32,613 nt of DNA. Source: a phage. Below the pieces are notes generated by a model. That model did no database searches, had not been told where the DNA came from, and worked only from the letters and a program-made list of their open reading frames with translations. This document shows positions 8,941-30,240 of the stretch, piece after piece; position 1 is the first letter of the stretch, and every line of letters starts with the position of its first letter. Location of the stretch: assembly GCA_033178465.1 (NCBI GenBank), contig GCA_033178465.1_4726.5; one strand, 5' to 3'. The translations under genes and the position numbers were made by a program.

Positions 8941-9144
8941 ATGTTAACGAAGGAATCCAAGAAGAACATTGAAGCGTGGATTTTTGATGATGTGTCGTTG
9001 AATCTATCATTGGATCCGAAGGTTCGTGGTTTACAAGCCGATTTCGCGTATAACGTGTTACATGGTTGCCGCTACACGTTAAGCGATCCTAAATATCGTT
9101 ATAAATTTCAGGAACTACTTGAAACACTTAGAGGATTAAAATGA
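8941..9144 (+). CDS. hypothetical protein
   Basis: Track ORF; GAGGTG upstream of ATG; stop overlaps the thyA start. Confidence 0.5.
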
Positions 9145-10160
9145 AACAGTATTTGGACCTTTTGCAAGACATCATGGATAATGGTCGTGATAAAGCTGAT
9201 CGTACAGGCACCGGGACCCGTTCCGTATTCGGACGTCAGATGCGTTTTGACTTGAAGAAAGGATTCCCGCTGGTAACCACTAAGAAGATTCACCTTAAGA
9301 GCGTTATCCACGAACTGCTCTGGTTTCTTAATGGTGATACAAACGTTGCTTATCTTCAAGATAACGGTGTTCGTATCTGGAATGAGTGGGCTGACGAAGA
9401 AGGGAATCTAGGACCTATTTACGGCAAACAATGGCGGGAATGGATCGACTACAAAATGGTTGTTCCGCACGATACAGAACGTACTCGTGAGTTGATGCAA
9501 CGCGGCTATGAGTATTGCGGTGTTGTTGACGCCGGTATGGTCAAACATCTCTTGTATGTTAAACACCACGACCAAATCGCAAACGTGATGCGTCAGCTTA
9601 AAGAAGATCCTGATTCTCGACGGATCATCGTTAGCGCGTGGAACGTAGGCGATTTAGACGATATGCATCTCGCTCCGTGCCATTCATTTTATCAGTTCTA
9701 TACTCACGAACTCACGATCGATGAACGCGTTGATTATGTCCAGCGCAATGACGTACTAAGAACCCAGTGGGTTACGGATGATGTACGACACAGTGAAACA
9801 GAACTCTGGTTGAATGCGCATAACGTACCAACACGTGCATTATCCTGTCAGCTTTACCAGAGATCGTGCGACACGGTGCTTGGGAAACCGTTCAACATCG
9901 CCTCATACTCGTTGTTAACACACATGCTTGCCCAGCAGCTGAATATGGACGTTGGTGAGTTCGTGTGGACCGGTGGAGATTGTCACATCTATCACAACCA
10001 TTTCGAACAGGTTAAAGAACAACTCAGCCGTGAACCGTATCCGTTACCGAAGCTAACAATCGTACGTAAACCGGAAAGTATTACGGATTACCGTTACGAA
10101 GACTTTGTGTTCGTCGGATATCAATCACATCCGGCTATCAAGGCTAAGGTGGCGGTGTAA
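9141..10160 (+). CDS. thyA: thymidylate synthase
   Basis: Signature blocks [39 protein letters not shown] (catalytic Cys), [15 protein letters not shown]; two insertions relative to compact ThyA. Confidence 0.92.
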
Positions 10161-10501: not shown

Positions 10502-10531
10502 GAATATCGAGATTTATTTTAGGAGTTTAGA

Positions 10532-10678
10532 ATGACTTGGTCATATCCCTATCGTATTCTGATAGGTGTTAAAAATAAGAAAGGTCCTCGTAAAGGTAAA
10601 TGGAGATACACCTGGTTATGCGGACAGATAGAACTAAAACCGAGAATCTTCTCTGCCTGGAGTAAAAGTGATGATTAA
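10532..10678 (+). CDS. small basic protein (48 aa), KKGPxKGK family; not in ORF track
   Basis: ATG 7 nt after AGGAG; hand translation MTWSYPYRILIGVKNKKGPRKGKWRYTWLCGQIELKPRIFSAWSKSDD; shares the basic patch with three other small proteins. Confidence 0.4.
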   Translation: MTWSYPYRILIGVKNKKGPRKGKWRYTWLCGQIELKPRIFSAWSKSDD

Positions 10679-10874
10679 TTCTCTACAGCGCTACATACTA
10701 AATCATGTTATCAACGACATGATCGGTGTTCGTTTAGTCAAAGGAAAACACAAGAAAGGGTGCAATAAAGGGAAACGGTTCGTCGCGCACGTGGTACCAA
10801 TGACCGAACGAAGGATCGCAAATGCTGCGGTGGATTCTATCGCGAAAGCGATGCCGTGGCTTATGCTGGATTGA
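10668..10874 (+). CDS. small basic protein, KKGPxKGK family
   Basis: Track ORF (GTG 10668, ATG 10671); contains KGKHKKGCNKGKRF. Confidence 0.45.
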   Translation: MMINSLQRYILNHVINDMIGVRLVKGKHKKGCNKGKRFVAHVVPMTERRIANAAVDSIAKAMPWLMLD

Positions 10875-10900
10875 CTTCTTAGAAGAAAGAGGAGTTACGT

Positions 10901-11098
10901 ATGCAATGTCTCGAAGAAACAGAAGCGGGTACTCTGGATTATATCGATCCGATGTATTTATTCCGATCTATCGCCACTCGATATTTGGCTAGTGTTTATA
11001 ACAAACGCGTTAAACGAGGCCCGGGTAAAGGCAGACAGAAGAAAGTAGGTATTTATAAATGTCATAAATCACCTAATCCGATGTATTGTTGGAGATAG
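10901..11098 (+). CDS. small basic protein, KKGPxKGK family
   Basis: AGAGGAG upstream of ATG; contains KRVKRGPGKGRQKKVG. Confidence 0.5.
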   Translation: MQCLEETEAGTLDYIDPMYLFRSIATRYLASVYNKRVKRGPGKGRQKKVGIYKCHKSPNPMYCWR

Positions 11099-17348: not shown

Positions 17349-20012
<2,664 letters not shown>

Positions 20013-20024
20013 TGGGGTGGCGCT

Positions 20025-20492
20025 ATGGTCAAGGACTGGACACCCGAAGAAGACGCGATATTGATTACTCTGTACCGAAACGGTATCCCGATGCAAGAGA
20101 TTGCGGCACGGCTTGACCGAACAGAAGGTTCGGTTCAAGGTCGAATTAACCGTAATCGCAAGCGCTGGAAACTCATGTCACGTCACCGCTATTGTTGTTT
20201 CGAAGAACGCGTGATGTTAGCCGATTATCTTAAGACACACAGCGTGAAAGAAGCCGCGGTAATGTTCAATCGTAGCGTGGATGCGATCGCTAAACTCTGC
20301 TACCGTTATGGCATTGTTGCATGCAAAGCGCAACGTCGAGAGATGATTTATCATCGAATACATACTCTTAGAAAAGAGAAGAAAACCTGGGAGAGAATAC
20401 AGAATATCATCAATAACGAATTTAACACCCATTACACGTTAAGCGGTGTTCATAGCCTCTACTACACTCAAGCATTAAAACGCGTAGAATAG
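20025..20492 (+). CDS. Myb/SANT-like HTH repeat protein, array member 2
   Basis: DWTPEEDAILITLY...EIAARLDRTEGSVQGRI plus two further repeats. Confidence 0.6.
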   Translation: MVKDWTPEEDAILITLYRNGIPMQEIAARLDRTEGSVQGRINRNRKRWKLMSRHRYCCFEERVMLADYLKTHSVKEAAVMFNRSVDAIAKLCYRYGIVACKAQRREMIYHRIHTLRKEKKTWERIQNIINNEFNTHYTLSGVHSLYYTQALKRVE

Positions 20493-20505
20493 GAGAAATC
20501 TCGTT

Positions 20506-21009
20506 GTGAAACCTCCAGTACGACGATGGAATCGTAAGGATGATGAACAGTTGCTGGAATTGTATTATCGTCACCCGAAATTAAAAATCCGTGAAATCGC
20601 AGAAATCATGGAAACAACGTACGGTGCAATTAAATCGAGGTTGATATACTTAAATGTCGAACGTCGTAAACCACATAAACGTTTCAGTGTCGATGAGTTG
20701 GAATATATCAGAGCACACTGCAAACACAAAAGTTACAAACAACTCGCACGCGATTTAAACAGGGATCCAAACAGTATTAGAACGATAGCACACCGTCATG
20801 GCTTCAAGCGGTTAAGCGAGGATGATACTAAGATCTTCATAGCCTTCGTTGATACATTGTTAGAAGAAACACAGGACTGGCACCACATTGCTGAACGGGT
20901 TAATGCGCATTTCGGTATAACACGTACGAAGCAGGCTGTCTATCAGCGTTGGTGGCATCATAGAAAGAAAAGAGGGATACAAGATGGGACGATCTCAACC
21001 GTGGCGTGA
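20506..21009 (+). CDS. Myb/SANT-like HTH repeat protein, array member 3
   Basis: GTG start 9 nt after AGGAGA; RWNRKDDEQLLELY...EIAEIMETTYGAIKSRL; C-terminal VYQRWWHHRKKRG. Confidence 0.6.
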   Translation: MKPPVRRWNRKDDEQLLELYYRHPKLKIREIAEIMETTYGAIKSRLIYLNVERRKPHKRFSVDELEYIRAHCKHKSYKQLARDLNRDPNSIRTIAHRHGFKRLSEDDTKIFIAFVDTLLEETQDWHHIAERVNAHFGITRTKQAVYQRWWHHRKKRGIQDGTISTVA

Positions 21010-21487
21010 CGACGAGCTGAAAGACGTCACGCATCTGTACTTAAACACATCGATGACGATTGATGAAATCGCACAACGGACAGGACGAACACGCGCCAGC
21101 ATCGACGCGCGTCTGGGACGTTTGGGAATACGTCAACGCCAAAAGCATCGACCTTATACGGAAGAAGAACGCGCGTACATCAAGTCCGTAATCAAACAAA
21201 AATCGCTGCGTGAGATCGCGTACGATTTAAACCGTTCGTATGACTCGGTTCGTCAGTTTATACGGCTTAACGGAATTCGTCGTGCATTAACCAAGCAAGA
21301 ACGGGAAGCGATCATCGCGTTTATCGCGGAACGACTTAACGTTACCCAAAATTGGAATGTTATTACGTACGACGTTGTTGTTAAATTTGGGATTACAACG
21401 AATAAACATGCGTTGTATCAACGTTGGTGTTACTACACGAAAAACAAAGGAGCTGCCTATGCGCAAATACCGTCGCTGGACAGATGA
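20984..21487 (+). CDS. Myb/SANT-like HTH repeat protein, array member 4
   Basis: Overlaps member 3 by 26 nt; PWRDDELKDVTHLY...; YTEEERAYIKSVIKQKSLREIAYDLNRSYDSVRQ; C-terminal LYQRWCYYTKNKG. Confidence 0.6.
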   Translation: MGRSQPWRDDELKDVTHLYLNTSMTIDEIAQRTGRTRASIDARLGRLGIRQRQKHRPYTEEERAYIKSVIKQKSLREIAYDLNRSYDSVRQFIRLNGIRRALTKQEREAIIAFIAERLNVTQNWNVITYDVVVKFGITTNKHALYQRWCYYTKNKGAAYAQIPSLDR

Positions 21488-21989
21488 GGAACTCTCACGC
21501 CTCGAGAATTACGCGGACCAGATACCCAGACCACCGGTTAGTGAGCTGGCTACTGTATTTCAACGCACAGAAAGCGCAATTAAGAATAAGTTGTATATGT
21601 TGTTCCCTTCGATGAGAACCAATGAGGCATATACGGACAACGAGATTTCCTATATTCGTGACAATATCCATAGATACTCGGTTAAACAACTGTCAAATCA
21701 TCTTGGTCGATCGAGAGCGAGTGTCGCCTCCGTAATACGACGACTCAAGCTACGACGATACGATCCAGATGAATGGTGCAAAATTTCAGACCGTATTACA
21801 GCACTTCGACGTGAAGGAGTTAACTGGAGAGAAGTTGCTCGCATTATCAGCGTCGAGTTCAAACGGGAGTACCGTCACACACATCTTTGTCAGCGTTACT
21901 ATTATAACACACGTGGTAAGAAATGGCTGCAGGTAAAGAATACACAACAACCGAAATCGCATTCATACGCCGAAACGCGGGCGTCATGA
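21459..21989 (+). CDS. Myb/SANT-like HTH repeat protein, array member 5
   Basis: Track ORF 21357 trimmed to the ATG at 21459, 6 nt after AAAGGAG; RWTDEELSRLENY...; YTDNEISYIRDNIHRYSVKQLSNHLGRSRASV. Confidence 0.6.
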   Translation: MRKYRRWTDEELSRLENYADQIPRPPVSELATVFQRTESAIKNKLYMLFPSMRTNEAYTDNEISYIRDNIHRYSVKQLSNHLGRSRASVASVIRRLKLRRYDPDEWCKISDRITALRREGVNWREVARIISVEFKREYRHTHLCQRYYYNTRGKKWLQVKNTQQPKSHSYAETRAS

Positions 21990-27029: not shown

Positions 27030-27347
27030 ATGAGTATGTTTAAAATGGCTGTATTTGCTATTCGTAATAATCGCGATATCTTAGGTCATTTGGAAGCTGA
27101 CGCTGAAGGAACACTGATTCGTTTCATGCGTCGTGTTAAAGAAGCCTTTGATAATCGCGAGTATCTCGTGGAAGTTGTTGAGGACCTTCCACCGAACTCG
27201 ATGCGTTTTGTCGCTATCGATGGATCTGCAACCGACATCCGTTTCATCACCGTTAACGGAACAATGATGATGTTTTCGGGCGATGATACTGTTACAGGGC
27301 TGTTTCCAATCGTAACGGTTCTGGGTCATTTCTTACGTGCAAACTAA
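27030..27347 (+). CDS. hypothetical protein
   Basis: Track ORF; AAGAGGA upstream of ATG. Confidence 0.55.
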   Translation: MSMFKMAVFAIRNNRDILGHLEADAEGTLIRFMRRVKEAFDNREYLVEVVEDLPPNSMRFVAIDGSATDIRFITVNGTMMMFSGDDTVTGLFPIVTVLGHFLRAN

Positions 27348-27351
27348 TCAG

Positions 27352-27370
27352 GTCCCCCTAAATGGGGGGC
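27352..27370 (+). terminator. GC stem-loop (CCCCC-TAAAT-GGGGG core) followed by TTTATACCG and T-rich sequence
   Basis: 5-7 bp G/C stem 5 nt after the stop at 27347, followed by CTTTATACCGATTTTATTT. Confidence 0.45.
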
Positions 27371-27405
27371 TTTATACCGATTTTATTTCAATAAGGATCT
27401 TTATC

Positions 27406-27828
27406 ATGAAACTGTTCAAAAATATCGTATTCGCTATCGTCACCACTCTGGCTTTTGTTAGCACGCAAGCACAGGCTAACTGGATGGCTCGTGGGAATAA
27501 CTGCTACGCCTACAGCGAAGACGGTCGTTATCAGATTGGTATCTCCGATCGCTCGCTTGTTGTCATGGGTCAATTTCAATGCAGTGCGCACTATCCGATG
27601 TCTGATACCGTAGGAATCAATGGACGTGTATACCAAGCATTGAATATCTGCAGTCCTGACATGCGTTTGATTCCGGTTATTAGCCTTGCGAATACAGATC
27701 AAGCTGCTAATGCAATCGCCAGCCTTAAAGAAGCACGTCGTGCGCGTATTCGTGCGTTTAACGAAACCATCATCGTAAATACCGATGATATTCAGGCATG
27801 CGCTAACAGTGTAGCGGCCGTACGTTAA
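27406..27828 (+). CDS. secreted protein with signal peptide
   Basis: Track ORF 27337 trimmed to the ATG at 27406 after AAGGAT; N-terminus MKLFKNIVFAIVTTLAFVSTQAQA-N is a typical Sec signal. Confidence 0.6.
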   Translation: MKLFKNIVFAIVTTLAFVSTQAQANWMARGNNCYAYSEDGRYQIGISDRSLVVMGQFQCSAHYPMSDTVGINGRVYQALNICSPDMRLIPVISLANTDQAANAIASLKEARRARIRAFNETIIVNTDDIQACANSVAAVR

Positions 27829-27866
27829 TACTAAATTGGTTTATTTAAGTTATTAAGGAAACGATC

Positions 27867-28217
27867 ATGAAAACGTTAACTAAATTGTTTGTTGCTGTTG
27901 CTATTCTGTTCAGTAGTGTTGTCGGTTCAGCGCAGGCTGGGTTGCTGGATAGCCCAGAAGTTTACGATAAAGCAAAAGCAATCTACATGGCCATGGAGAG
28001 CATGACGCCAGCAGACCTTGAAGAATGCGGTGTTGATTTCGGTATCCCGAAAGAACTCCCTGGAGTTAAGAACCCTACCAACCCCAGCGTGAAATTGAAA
28101 GTGGCAGACTTCGAAGTTTTCAACCCCTCTTTCAAGACCTACGCGCGGGTTCGTATACTTGTTGATCCAGCAACCGGTGTTGTTCAGGGCGGTGAATATC
28201 TCTATCTGGGTAAATAA
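27867..28217 (+). CDS. secreted protein with signal peptide
   Basis: AAGGA 8 nt upstream; N-terminus MKTLTKLFVAVAILFSSVVGSAQA-G. Confidence 0.6.
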   Translation: MKTLTKLFVAVAILFSSVVGSAQAGLLDSPEVYDKAKAIYMAMESMTPADLEECGVDFGIPKELPGVKNPTNPSVKLKVADFEVFNPSFKTYARVRILVDPATGVVQGGEYLYLGK

Positions 28218-28235
28218 TTGAGTAAGGACAATACG

Positions 28236-28445
28236 ATGATTCCAGCTAACCCTCTTTTAAGTCTCAATCCTTTCCATAGCAATCCTGGTGTCGATCCGAT
28301 ACAGCCTGCTTTTTTATCACAGTTCCAGGCTGATTATGATGGCGATGTGGTAACTCGAACCCGTATCCGTCTGTTGAATCACCGCAAGAAAGGCCCAGGT
28401 AAAGGCAAAGTAAAAATCATTCAACGTTTAATCTCTTATGTATAA
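28236..28445 (+). CDS. small basic protein, KKGPxKGK family
   Basis: Track ORF 28218 (TTG) trimmed to the ATG at 28236 after TAAGGA; contains HRKKGPGKGKVKII, same patch as the 10532-11098 trio. Confidence 0.45.
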   Translation: MIPANPLLSLNPFHSNPGVDPIQPAFLSQFQADYDGDVVTRTRIRLLNHRKKGPGKGKVKIIQRLISYV

Positions 28446-28464
28446 ACCAACATTGTTCGATAAG

Positions 28465-28486
28465 TGCCGCCTACATATGGGCGGCA
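28465..28486 (+). terminator. stem-loop (TGCCGCC / GGCGGCA, 8-nt loop)
   Basis: 7-bp GC-rich stem 20 nt after the stop at 28445. Confidence 0.35.
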
Positions 28487-28618
28487 TTGCTCTGGTCTTT
28501 ATGTTGTACAACAGTTGTCAAGGAGGTATGTGGGTACGTGCGTTATTAATCGCACTCGCGTTAGCGGTGTTTCTAAAATTTGAATCATCGCTTTATCAGA
28601 AAAAGTAAGAAGGAGTTC

Positions 28619-28813
28619 ATGATGGGACATATGCTACTACGGGGATTAACGGGGATGGTTTTAGCATGGATGGTGATTGGGTTTTGTGGGATGATGTTCT
28701 TCATGGTAGATGAACCGGCTGCCCGAATTAACGTAGGGTTATGGTTCGTCTTCCTGATGATAGCGGTATTCGTTATCGTTACCTTGTTGAGGAATGTAGG
28801 AAAACACAAATAA
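28619..28813 (+). CDS. small membrane protein, two predicted TM helices (holin-like size class)
   Basis: Track ORF 28580 trimmed to the ATG after AAGGAG; hydrophobic stretches GLTGMVLAWMVIGFCGMMFFMV and LWFVFLMIAVFVIVTLL. Confidence 0.5.
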   Translation: MMGHMLLRGLTGMVLAWMVIGFCGMMFFMVDEPAARINVGLWFVFLMIAVFVIVTLLRNVGKHK

Positions 28814-28829
28814 ACGATCGGGAAAAGCC

Positions 28830-29201
28830 ATGAGTTTAAAGACATACGCAAAAATCTATTTCATTTTCACTTTTATAATGATTGGGATTTCTGCAACGAA
28901 TATCGATTTTGAAACAACGACGGAACGCGTTTATTACGTTATCCGAACCATCGTTTGTGTTATAGGGCAGCTTCCCCTTTTGTATATTTGTACGTGGTCG
29001 ACGCGTAACATCAGACGGTTTGTCGTGTATGGGTTCGCGTACGTTCTTTTCATGCTTGTTATGTGGCAGGTCGATGCTCGACTGAGTGATATCGCAAATA
29101 TCATCGCAACGGCGATCCTCAGTGCAACAAGCTGGTGTTTATTTTTACCGATGTGTCGTCGTGTCGAGGATGAAGGTTATGGGTATCACGGAGAATCTTA
29201 A
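28830..29201 (+). CDS. membrane protein, 3-4 predicted TM helices
   Basis: Track ORF; hydrophobic segments IYFIFTFIMIGI, IRTIVCVIGQLPLLYI, FVVYGFAYVLFMLVMW, IIATAILSATSWCLFL. Confidence 0.55.
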   Translation: MSLKTYAKIYFIFTFIMIGISATNIDFETTTERVYYVIRTIVCVIGQLPLLYICTWSTRNIRRFVVYGFAYVLFMLVMWQVDARLSDIANIIATAILSATSWCLFLPMCRRVEDEGYGYHGES

Positions 29202-29490
29202 GTTAACTAATCGCATCCTTGTCGATAGAGAAGTTGTTTTACGCGAGATACGAAGCGTGATGGCGATCTTTAATCTGGATCATCGATCCGCCATTATGTC
29301 TATTCTCTTGAATAAAACAACCTTTAATATCCGGGAGATACGTCGTATTCACAACGGTGTGGAGCGACGGCATAAATTAAGCGACGAACTCGTACATTGC
29401 GAGTTTATACCACATCAAGTCTATCGACGTATTTATCGCGATCCGTATGTTCGGGATAAATACAACCTATGGCTTGACGGTAGAGGTTAA
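29170..29490 (+). CDS. hypothetical protein
   Basis: Track ORF 29086..29490 trimmed to the first ATG near the end of the upstream gene; start uncertain (also ATG at 29179). Confidence 0.35.
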   Translation: MKVMGITENLKLTNRILVDREVVLREIRSVMAIFNLDHRSAIMSILLNKTTFNIREIRRIHNGVERRHKLSDELVHCEFIPHQVYRRIYRDPYVRDKYNLWLDGRG

Positions 29491-29507
29491 CATCTTTGAG
29501 AAACTAT

Positions 29508-29675
29508 ATGAATTCAAACGATGTACACCTTTACCGCGTTGGATACGGGAAATGGGTTCTGTTATCCAACGTTATGTTTATTGCCAAACCAGAGGAGACC
29601 GTATTTTCAGTACCGTTTATTTCTGTCGTGGATGTCGGGCAAACATCTGACGCTAACCTGCTGCCCGCTGAATAG
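29508..29675 (+). CDS. hypothetical small protein (55 aa); not in ORF track
   Basis: Hand translation MNSNDVHLYRVGYGKWVLLSNVMFIAKPEETVFSVPFISVVDVGQTSDANLLPAE; alternative to overlapping track ORF 29447..29650 in another frame. Confidence 0.3.
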   Translation: MNSNDVHLYRVGYGKWVLLSNVMFIAKPEETVFSVPFISVVDVGQTSDANLLPAE

Positions 29676-29742
29676 AACAACCCGATGACGGGATGCGTTA
29701 TCAAGACGCCAGTGGACAGCACCTTATCGTGAGGTTATTAAG

Positions 29743-30240
29743 ATGCAAGGTATTTTACACACGTTGATTTTAGGACTTGCTATGTTGCTTATCGCACCGT
29801 TCAGTCAAGCATCAGTGAACGCGGGGCCTAGAATCGATTGCCGGAAAGAGATCGTCGCATGTGCGGTGTATATGGAAGCCAGAGGCGAATCTGTAAAAGG
29901 GCAATACTCCGTGGCGTTTTTAATACATAATCGATCTATGGACTACCGATTCCCTACGAACGTCAGAGACGTCGTACTGCAAAGAGGTCAATTCCCCTGG
30001 ACAAAACAAAGGCGTATTGTCATACGCGATCACGCTGCTTTTGAGCGAGCAAGAGCAATAGCACGAGAGGTCGCAACATTACGTTATACTGACATTGCGG
30101 CTTACCATAAAGCCGACCCAACACGAGGAGCTGTATTCTTTAACGCGAAACATCTTCGCCCTAAACATTTCAGAAAACATGCTACCAATATCACCGTGGT
30201 AGATAGCCACATTTTCTTTGGTAAACGACGACACACGTAA
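29743..30240 (+). CDS. secreted SleB-like cell-wall hydrolase (Hydrolase_2 family), candidate endolysin
   Basis: GAGG upstream; signal peptide MQGILHTLILGLAMLLIAPFSQASVNA; signature CAVYMEARGES...GQYSVAFLIHNR...FPTNV...VVLQRGQFPW. Confidence 0.7.
   Translation: MQGILHTLILGLAMLLIAPFSQASVNAGPRIDCRKEIVACAVYMEARGESVKGQYSVAFLIHNRSMDYRFPTNVRDVVLQRGQFPWTKQRRIVIRDHAAFERARAIAREVATLRYTDIAAYHKADPTRGAVFFNAKHLRPKHFRKHATNITVVDSHIFFGKRRHT

Follow-up and report, generated by a model that had tools for sequence, protein, structure and literature searches.

Why should four small proteins of one phage carry the same lysine- and glycine-rich patch of eight residues? This question is raised by a stretch of phage DNA of 32,613 nucleotides (nt; contig GCA_033178465.1_4726.5 of assembly GCA_033178465.1), here called the window, which comes from a nucleus-forming jumbo phage of the Goslar-like kind. 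With Escherichia phage vB_EcoM_Goslar (Chimalliviridae), the record of which has the reversed orientation, the window shares 95% identity. Its four patch-bearing open reading frames (ORFs) are orthologous to Goslar gp139, gp138, gp137 and gp102 and are referred to by these names; "hypothetical protein" is the designation of all four in Goslar and every other source name found. The octapeptide common to them, [K/R][K/R]-G-[P/C]-x-K-G-[K/R], occurs once in each. In our analysis this patch is non-random and under purifying selection in genuine genes, and we tentatively favour the view that it is a loop which grips nucleic acid.

All four genes lie on the plus strand, those for gp139, gp138 and gp137 in tandem. 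The gp139 orthologue (10532-10678; 48 amino acids (aa), containing GVKNKKGPRKGKWRY, isoelectric point (pI) 10.2, net charge +7.5) has the patch KKGPRKGK at 10577-10600. A Shine-Dalgarno-like AGGAG, read from the sequence, stands at 10521-10525 with a 6-nt spacer to the ATG. The gp138 orthologue (10671-10874; 67 aa from the ATG, containing KGKHKKGCNKGKRF, pI 10.5) has the variant KKGCNKGK at 10752-10775; an alternative GTG start at 10668 would give 68 aa, and GGAG is present at 10659-10662. Counted from its ATG, the gp138 gene begins before the 48-aa gene has ended, with 8 nt of overlap at the stop codon, an arrangement that suggests translational coupling. The gp137 orthologue (10901-11098; 65 aa, containing KRVKRGPGKGRQKKVG, pI 9.7) is preceded by GAGGAG at 10889-10894 and carries KRGPGKGR at 11012-11035. 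The gp102 orthologue (28236-28445; 69 aa, or 75 aa if started from an upstream TTG, containing HRKKGPGKGKVKII, pI 10.4) is preceded by AAGGA at 28224-28228 and carries KKGPGKGK at 28386-28409. In the gp102 family the C-terminal module ADYDGD-x6-IRLLNxRKKGPGKGKVKIIQRLISYV is conserved and the N-terminus is variable. All four proteins are basic (pI 9.7-10.5, net charge +5.7 to +7.8), and in each a hydrophobic or amphipathic segment precedes the patch and a short hydrophobic segment comes after it. The ORFs and peptides that the initial annotation had quoted are all present exactly, including the AGGAG before the 48-aa ORF. It had also described this ORF as missing from its ORF track; that is correct and due to its size cut-off alone, but in the Goslar RefSeq record the ORF is already an annotated coding sequence (gp139).

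The patch is not what composition would produce. The pattern [KR][KR]G..[KR]G[KR] matched only the four sites in the six-frame translation of the window, looser patterns found the same four, and in six frames of the complete 237,307-bp Goslar genome again only these sites were matched. The expected number of matches was 0.04 for the window and 0.35 for the Goslar genome, against 4 observed, and none of 200 residue shuffles reached 4. As the pattern was chosen post hoc, after the data had been seen, these significance figures are somewhat optimistic. Yet all matches are in frame in small genes on the same strand, and three of these genes are adjacent, which makes coincidence very unlikely despite the post hoc pattern. 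Among 2.9 million IMG/VR contigs the exact form KKGPGKGK had only 12 occurrences, two of them in Goslar-type phages. The repetition is one of protein, not of DNA: the search found no DNA repeats covering the patches, and the codons used for Gly, Pro, Cys, Arg and Lys vary between copies and orthologues while the residues stay constant. Other elements gave nothing of note, since the window had no Rfam or tRNA matches, and its sigma-70-like promoter and terminator matches were no better than shuffles.

Orthologues occur in many Goslar-like genomes (about 235-243 kb). Some of these come from metagenomes, others from phages carried in assemblies of E. coli, Salmonella and Enterobacter. A gp139 orthologue was present in every Goslar-like locus fetched, among them an N-terminally extended form of 93 aa and a diverged form of 51 aa; for gp138 ten orthologue clusters were obtained and for gp137 53. 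These sets are shallow and represent one phage genus. Against diverged relatives the ratio of non-synonymous to synonymous substitution rates (dN/dS) was 0.23-0.55 for gp139, where dS reached 1.76, 0.06-0.37 for gp138 and 0.60 for the fast-evolving gp137; the neighbouring thyA gave 0.056. The four are thus fast-evolving yet constrained accessory genes. In each orthologue alignment the patch is among the columns of lowest entropy whereas the flanks drift. Positions 1-7 of the gp139 patch (KKGPRKG) were invariant in the orthologues seen, although the Pro, Arg and Lys codons differ synonymously between them, and the residue at position 8 is R in the 93-aa form (KKGPRKGR) and K in the others. In gp138 orthologues position 4 is C, Y or V, which makes for a looser variant. 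The patch is under purifying selection in each orthologue group.

The genes are also transcribed. In the Goslar RNA-seq data of Armbruster et al. (10.1101/2023.09.20.558163, Supplementary Table 2) reads are present for all four, at numbers per nucleotide comparable to those of the neighbouring genes. When the nuclear-shell protein ChmA was knocked down in the same study, the levels of the four were unchanged or slightly up (log2 fold change of gp102 +1.1 to +1.3), and that of the capsid gene changed by about -4 log2 (about 16-fold down). This indicates that they belong to an early class which is transcribed before the nucleus is formed. A literature search found no paper on Goslar gp102, gp137 or gp139, and the papers in which the name of gp138 stands beside Goslar mean a PhiPA3 protein. 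In the part of the text of the Goslar virion mass-spectrometry paper that was available the names of the four were not found. The 48-aa ORF, which had been proposed as a gene from its letters alone, is a genuine one: it is conserved, transcribed and annotated as gp139 in Goslar RefSeq.

Outside this group of phages the searches did not find the four proteins. A tblastn search of 50,697 phage genomes returned Goslar only, and the GTDB genome collection gave no matches. A HMMER profile scan of 1.84 billion protein representatives found the same orthologue groups only, apart from two repeat-protein artefacts. Relatives in metagenomes were restricted to 89-96% identity, and the thyA-anchored loci of other phages contained no patch ORFs. 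The four proteins are confined to Goslar-like phages.

The octapeptide by itself is less restricted. A degenerate DNA scan of IMG/VR for KKGPxKGK gave at least 120 matches. Among the matches listed were the phrog_32989 family, a large set of 56-89-aa proteins from uncultured, mostly marine phages, as well as a His-Me/HNH endonuclease (GYGKMSMRFKKGPRKGKVKSALAHR), portal proteins (ELVYTIPKKGPLKGKIALSKI), an HK97 gp10-like protein and a PAPS-reductase-like protein. In the unrelated proteins outside phrog_32989, as far as the matches listed go, it sits between two strand-like hydrophobic segments, and the portals that bear it align to solved G20c-type portals, which show a short turn at this place. 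The octapeptide is therefore a recurrent loop or hairpin-tip element of phage proteins, many of which handle DNA. Since it recurs in unrelated phage proteins, its common possession is no proof of homology.

Are the four proteins, then, one family, as the initial annotation had put it? With the patch included, hhalign aligned the gp137 and gp102 profiles at 86.6% (E 4.5e-6, 35 columns), and the other five pairs reached 29%, 9.7%, 6.9%, 2.7% and 0.4%. As a control we used the profile of phrog_32989, an unrelated family selected only for having the same octapeptide. It reached 25-76% with the Goslar families, so that the profile-profile probabilities are evidently driven by the patch. After removal of the patch, the N-terminal flanks of gp137 and gp102 still beat 30 of 30 column shuffles, but marginally (12.9 against a maximum of 12.2), and all other pairs resembled column shuffles.

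Duplication within the array can nevertheless be seen in a relative. In a diverged Goslar-like phage (L160, a contig of Logan SRR11059096) an extra, uncalled ORF of 50 aa (MREGKGERRLIRYLKESWLPYIIGGRFKIAKYKKGCNKGKVYTIRVFKPR; L160:5959-6111), with GAGGAA 7 nt before it, separates the gp138-like from the gp137-like gene; at this place the window has a gap of 26 nt only. Its product is identical to the gp138 core in 15 of 26 residues (58%, E 2e-8), which extends beyond the patch (IG.R....KYKKGCNKGK..T.R). Judging by this alignment, the patch is present here in a fifth copy, and the ORF clearly duplicates part of the gp138 core. The content of the array is variable in other relatives as well: L024 lacks gp137, and it is in L025 that gp139 has the N-terminal extension to 93 aa. 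The tandem genes, the L160 duplicate and the variable copy number and gene length together show that duplication occurs in the array. Common descent of all four seems on the whole probable from the sequences. The claim of a family is thus supported in part: the tandem array and the L160 duplication speak for it, but the profile similarity is carried almost entirely by the patch and without it is marginal, for one pair alone.

The structures predicted for these proteins were of low quality. AlphaFold2 (AF2) modelled the gp138 family at a mean predicted local distance difference test score (pLDDT) of 60.6, with helices at residues 5-28 and 45-61 and, in a loop at 25-40 with pLDDT below 50, the patch. 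For gp137, where a merged gp137/gp102/gp139 alignment was the input, mean pLDDT was 52.3. A helix at 17-37 is followed by an unstructured chain in which the patch residues 38-45 are coil, pLDDT being 50-70 over most of the patch and below 50 from residue 45 on. Both models were too poor for a fold search. They suggest that most of each small protein lacks structure, or acquires it on binding, and that the segment with the patch is flexible.

Our preferred interpretation, which we put forward at less than even confidence, is that of an exposed lysine loop, hinged by Gly and Pro, on fast-evolving early accessory proteins. This flexible loop would clamp a polyanion, for which the sugar-phosphate backbone of DNA or RNA is the most probable candidate. 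What is specific to each protein, namely fold-on-binding, oligomerisation or the choice of partner, would come from the divergent flanks. The set would have been produced by repeated local duplication and rapid divergence, after which the functional loop alone would still be recognisable. This interpretation is supported by the patch statistics, selection, the basic charge, the reality of the genes, the coil context in AF2, the DNA-handling contexts of the octapeptide elsewhere and duplication. We infer three parts of it: the exposure of the loop, its polyanion or nucleic-acid ligand and a single ancestor of all four.

Several points weigh against a nucleic-acid clamp. As both AF2 models are of low confidence, they are weak evidence for an exposed loop. 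Outside the patch the four proteins are without demonstrable homology to one another, and searches of Pfam, NCBIfam, PHROGs and PDB sequences match them to no nucleic-acid-binding family. The basic charge and the Lys/Gly loop would suit an acidic protein surface, membranes or polyphosphate equally well. Moreover, the DNA-linked contexts of the octapeptide elsewhere may just reflect that most phage proteins handle DNA.

Known motifs offer likenesses but no match. Pfam (E<=10), NCBIfam, PHROGs and PADLOC gave nothing meaningful for any of the four proteins, HU/IHF-type models did not match them, and PDB searches with the family profiles gave sub-threshold matches only, no ribosomal protein among them. 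Like the AT-hook (PF02178), the patch is a short stretch with Gly and Pro that is flanked by K/R and lies in an unstructured part of a small basic protein. AT-hooks bind DNA in its minor groove; RNA is bound by the extended type. The Goslar patches, however, lack the defining GRP/RGRP core and have no Pfam match at E<=10; the earlier statement that the patch is not an AT-hook holds, and it is no other catalogued motif either. With the KOW motif (PF00467) of ribosomal protein L24 and NusG the patch shares a Gly/Lys-rich loop between hydrophobic strand-like segments; the L24 hairpin reads, for example, ...GKDKGKxGKV.... Here register and spacing differ, nothing matches at E<=10 the 27-residue KOW profile with its alternating hydrophobic residues, invariant Gly and SH3-like barrel, and AF2 gives, at low confidence, a helix before the patch and no beta-barrel.

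Similar in appearance is phrog_32989, whose members, with function unassigned, end in ...GATGTQ[KR]YRIKKGPNKGK[IV]L and thus have the same octapeptide, a similar size and a basic C-terminus. Unlike in the Goslar proteins, the patch of phrog_32989 is at the extreme C-terminus, and there is no likeness outside it: the phrog_32989 profile did not match the four at E<=10, and hhalign alignments were confined to the patch, with flanks no better than shuffles. A further likeness, noted as a lead only, is to the N-terminal peptide of ParB/Spo0J. This K/R-G-L-G-K/R-G-L peptide stimulates the ATPase of ParA, and it shares with the patch a [KR][KR]-G-x-G-[KR]-G pattern in a flexible segment for partner docking. 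In ParB, however, the peptide is N-terminal and followed by LxALL, whereas the Goslar proteins have no ParB domain and no ParA partner nearby.

A first alternative to the clamp is that the patch is a short linear motif by which the proteins bind one common partner, of host or phage, with an acidic surface. Such a partner could be, among others, the ribosome, the tubulin tail, an RNA polymerase, or the shell or import machinery of the nucleus, and the four would then be distinct early effectors directed to the same site. We consider this possible but rather unlikely. It would fit a short motif which both low-confidence AF2 models place in coil behind a helix and which occurs within otherwise dissimilar small proteins, and it would fit the early expression as well as the invariance of the patch within orthologue groups whose flanks drift. 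Yet there is no known partner, no Goslar protein besides the four bears the patch, not even any of the known nuclear ones, and published work describes no linear import signal for these phages. Nor were the names of the four found in the available text of the virion paper.

A second alternative needs no ligand at all. The patch could be a favourable turn or hairpin tip, inherited or convergent, in proteins that are functionally unrelated. The identical octapeptide in many unrelated phage proteins, among the matches listed typically between strand-like segments, speaks for it. But a turn rarely needs four or five conserved Lys/Arg residues, and in the patch the basic residues are as conserved as Gly and Pro. 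Furthermore, the presence of four copies and none elsewhere in the Goslar genome argues for a shared function under selection. A mere turn appears unlikely to us.

In a more specific form of the docking idea the octapeptide would be a transferable address tag, by which a small set of early proteins is sent to one and the same place in the infected cell. This destination could be the nascent nucleus, the phage DNA after its injection or the early-infection vesicle, or a host machine such as the ribosome. We regard the tag, and likewise these destinations, as improbable. A general nuclear-import tag is excluded, as no other Goslar protein, be it an RNA polymerase subunit, the DNA polymerase or the RecA-like protein, bears the patch. 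In published work on nucleus-forming phages no linear import signal was found, and recognition of protein surfaces by PicA is favoured.

It has also to be asked whether the ORFs are decayed remnants of homing endonucleases (His-Me/HNH), in which a DNA-binding hairpin survived as the patch. In phage endonucleases of the His-Me finger/HNH_3 type (IMG/VR L054, L100 and L102) the N-terminal hairpin indeed contains KKGPRKGK between two strand-like segments. The IMG/VR HNH_3/zf-His_Me_endon protein GYGKMSMRFKKGPRKGKVKSALAHR recalls gp138 (...KKGCNKGKRFVAHV), and the region is a hotspot of mobile elements. In the relative L025 (L025:75-2202, Logan SRR32206242) a gene for a GIY-YIG/NUMOD3 (I-TevI-like) homing endonuclease interrupts the thymidylate synthase gene thyA, just before the cluster, an arrangement that recalls td of T4; thyA of the window (9141-10160) is intact. 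The Goslar proteins, however, unlike His-Me/HNH_3 proteins (PF13392, PF05551), have no catalytic finger. The catalytic His/Asn and the zinc ligands are absent, the "AH" spacing is two residues off, and no HNH/His-Me profile matches, although a genuine HNH protein bearing the same patch does match these profiles. Their own ribosome-binding sites, dN/dS below 1 and conserved lengths mark the ORFs as working genes and not pseudogene fragments, so that this origin is largely refuted and very improbable. On the same grounds a frameshifted pseudogene of a larger gene was ruled out.

Finally, that the likeness is a low-complexity coincidence or that the ORFs, the 48-aa one above all, are untranslated is hardly credible, since the frequency of K and G, the small size of the proteins and the proteomic evidence not found are outweighed by 4 matches against 0.04-0.4 expected, by a patch kept at the protein level through synonymous change, by ribosome-binding sites and detected transcripts and, for the 48-aa gene, by dN/dS of 0.23-0.55. 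The initial annotation had proposed to recognise such a coincidence by a lack of alignment outside the K/G stretch and of homologues with the same patch. There is indeed little alignment outside it, but the orthologues keep the patch, and the four matches stand against an expectation of 0.04-0.35.

Some further observations on the individual proteins should be recorded. The gp138 profile, in the C-terminal half of the protein (window 10761-10874), faintly resembles the N-terminal Rossmann segment of glutamyl-tRNA synthetase (GluRS; …GGEFVLRIEDTD..RST..AI.AI...M.WLGLD). PDB matches had E 0.17 and 1.3, which is not significant, and hhalign against E. coli GltX gave 65% over 38 columns. As the Pfam GluRS model does not match, the likeness is considered a chance lead. 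The gene for gp137 contains a perfect 12-nt direct repeat, ATCCGATGTATT, at window positions 10947-10958 and 11076-11087, the first copy of which encodes DPMY, near the N-terminus, and the second NPMY, near the C-terminus.

The invariant ADYDGD of gp102 (FQADYDGD, window 28323-28343) resembles the active-site NADFDGD of the RNA polymerase beta' subunit. This was noticed post hoc, and the similarity does not continue past DGD. The beta' gene of Goslar itself, gp247 (NC_048170, about 169.2-169.7 kb), stops after ...GYNADF exactly where a group I intron starts (Rfam RF00028, 46.9 bits), which is accompanied by a gene for an HNH endonuclease. Between ADYDGD and IRLL gp102 has six residues that come as alternative alleles, VVTRTR, TVIGNS and SVIGNR. 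Variants of gp102 with 96 aa and another N-terminus were found in Salmonella-associated Goslar-like phages (L146/L147:10001-10291). Before ADYDGD…IRLLNRRKKGPGKGK they have an echo of the module without the patch, RIRLLVDRKNSDNYL, which suggests an internal duplication.

As to the surroundings, the gp102 orthologue lies between two proteins with signal-peptide-like N-termini (27337-27828 and 27867-28217) and three ORFs that are small, hydrophobic and membrane-like (28438-28608, 28580-28813 and 28830-29201). A SleB/Hydrolase_2 endolysin follows at 29743-30240. The segment from 27337 to 30240 may be a lysis or envelope-related neighbourhood. Elsewhere in the window, at about 19665-21500 and directly downstream of the gene for an NAD-dependent DNA ligase, consecutive small proteins (Goslar gp119-gp116) give faint matches to Myb/SANT, helix-turn-helix and sigma-70 region 4 domains. 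They look like a paralogous array of putative DNA-binding regulators.

For the biology of these phages the octapeptide is a lineage-specific motif of modest interest. If neither a nucleic-acid clamp nor a docking or targeting role holds, the 48-aa ORF is still a real gene, and the apparent family is mostly a shared motif and not demonstrable homology. Of the scores of tiny early genes in nucleus-forming jumbo phages it is presumed that they reprogram the host or assist in building the early-infection vesicle and the phage nucleus. A patch of eight residues that is under selection in four early proteins, and in five of a relative, offers a concrete mutational handle on whether they share a target. 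If the patch is a clamp for nucleic acid, it would be a new minimal basic motif beside the AT-hook; if it is a tag for docking or targeting, nucleus-forming phages would have in it their first described linear signal.

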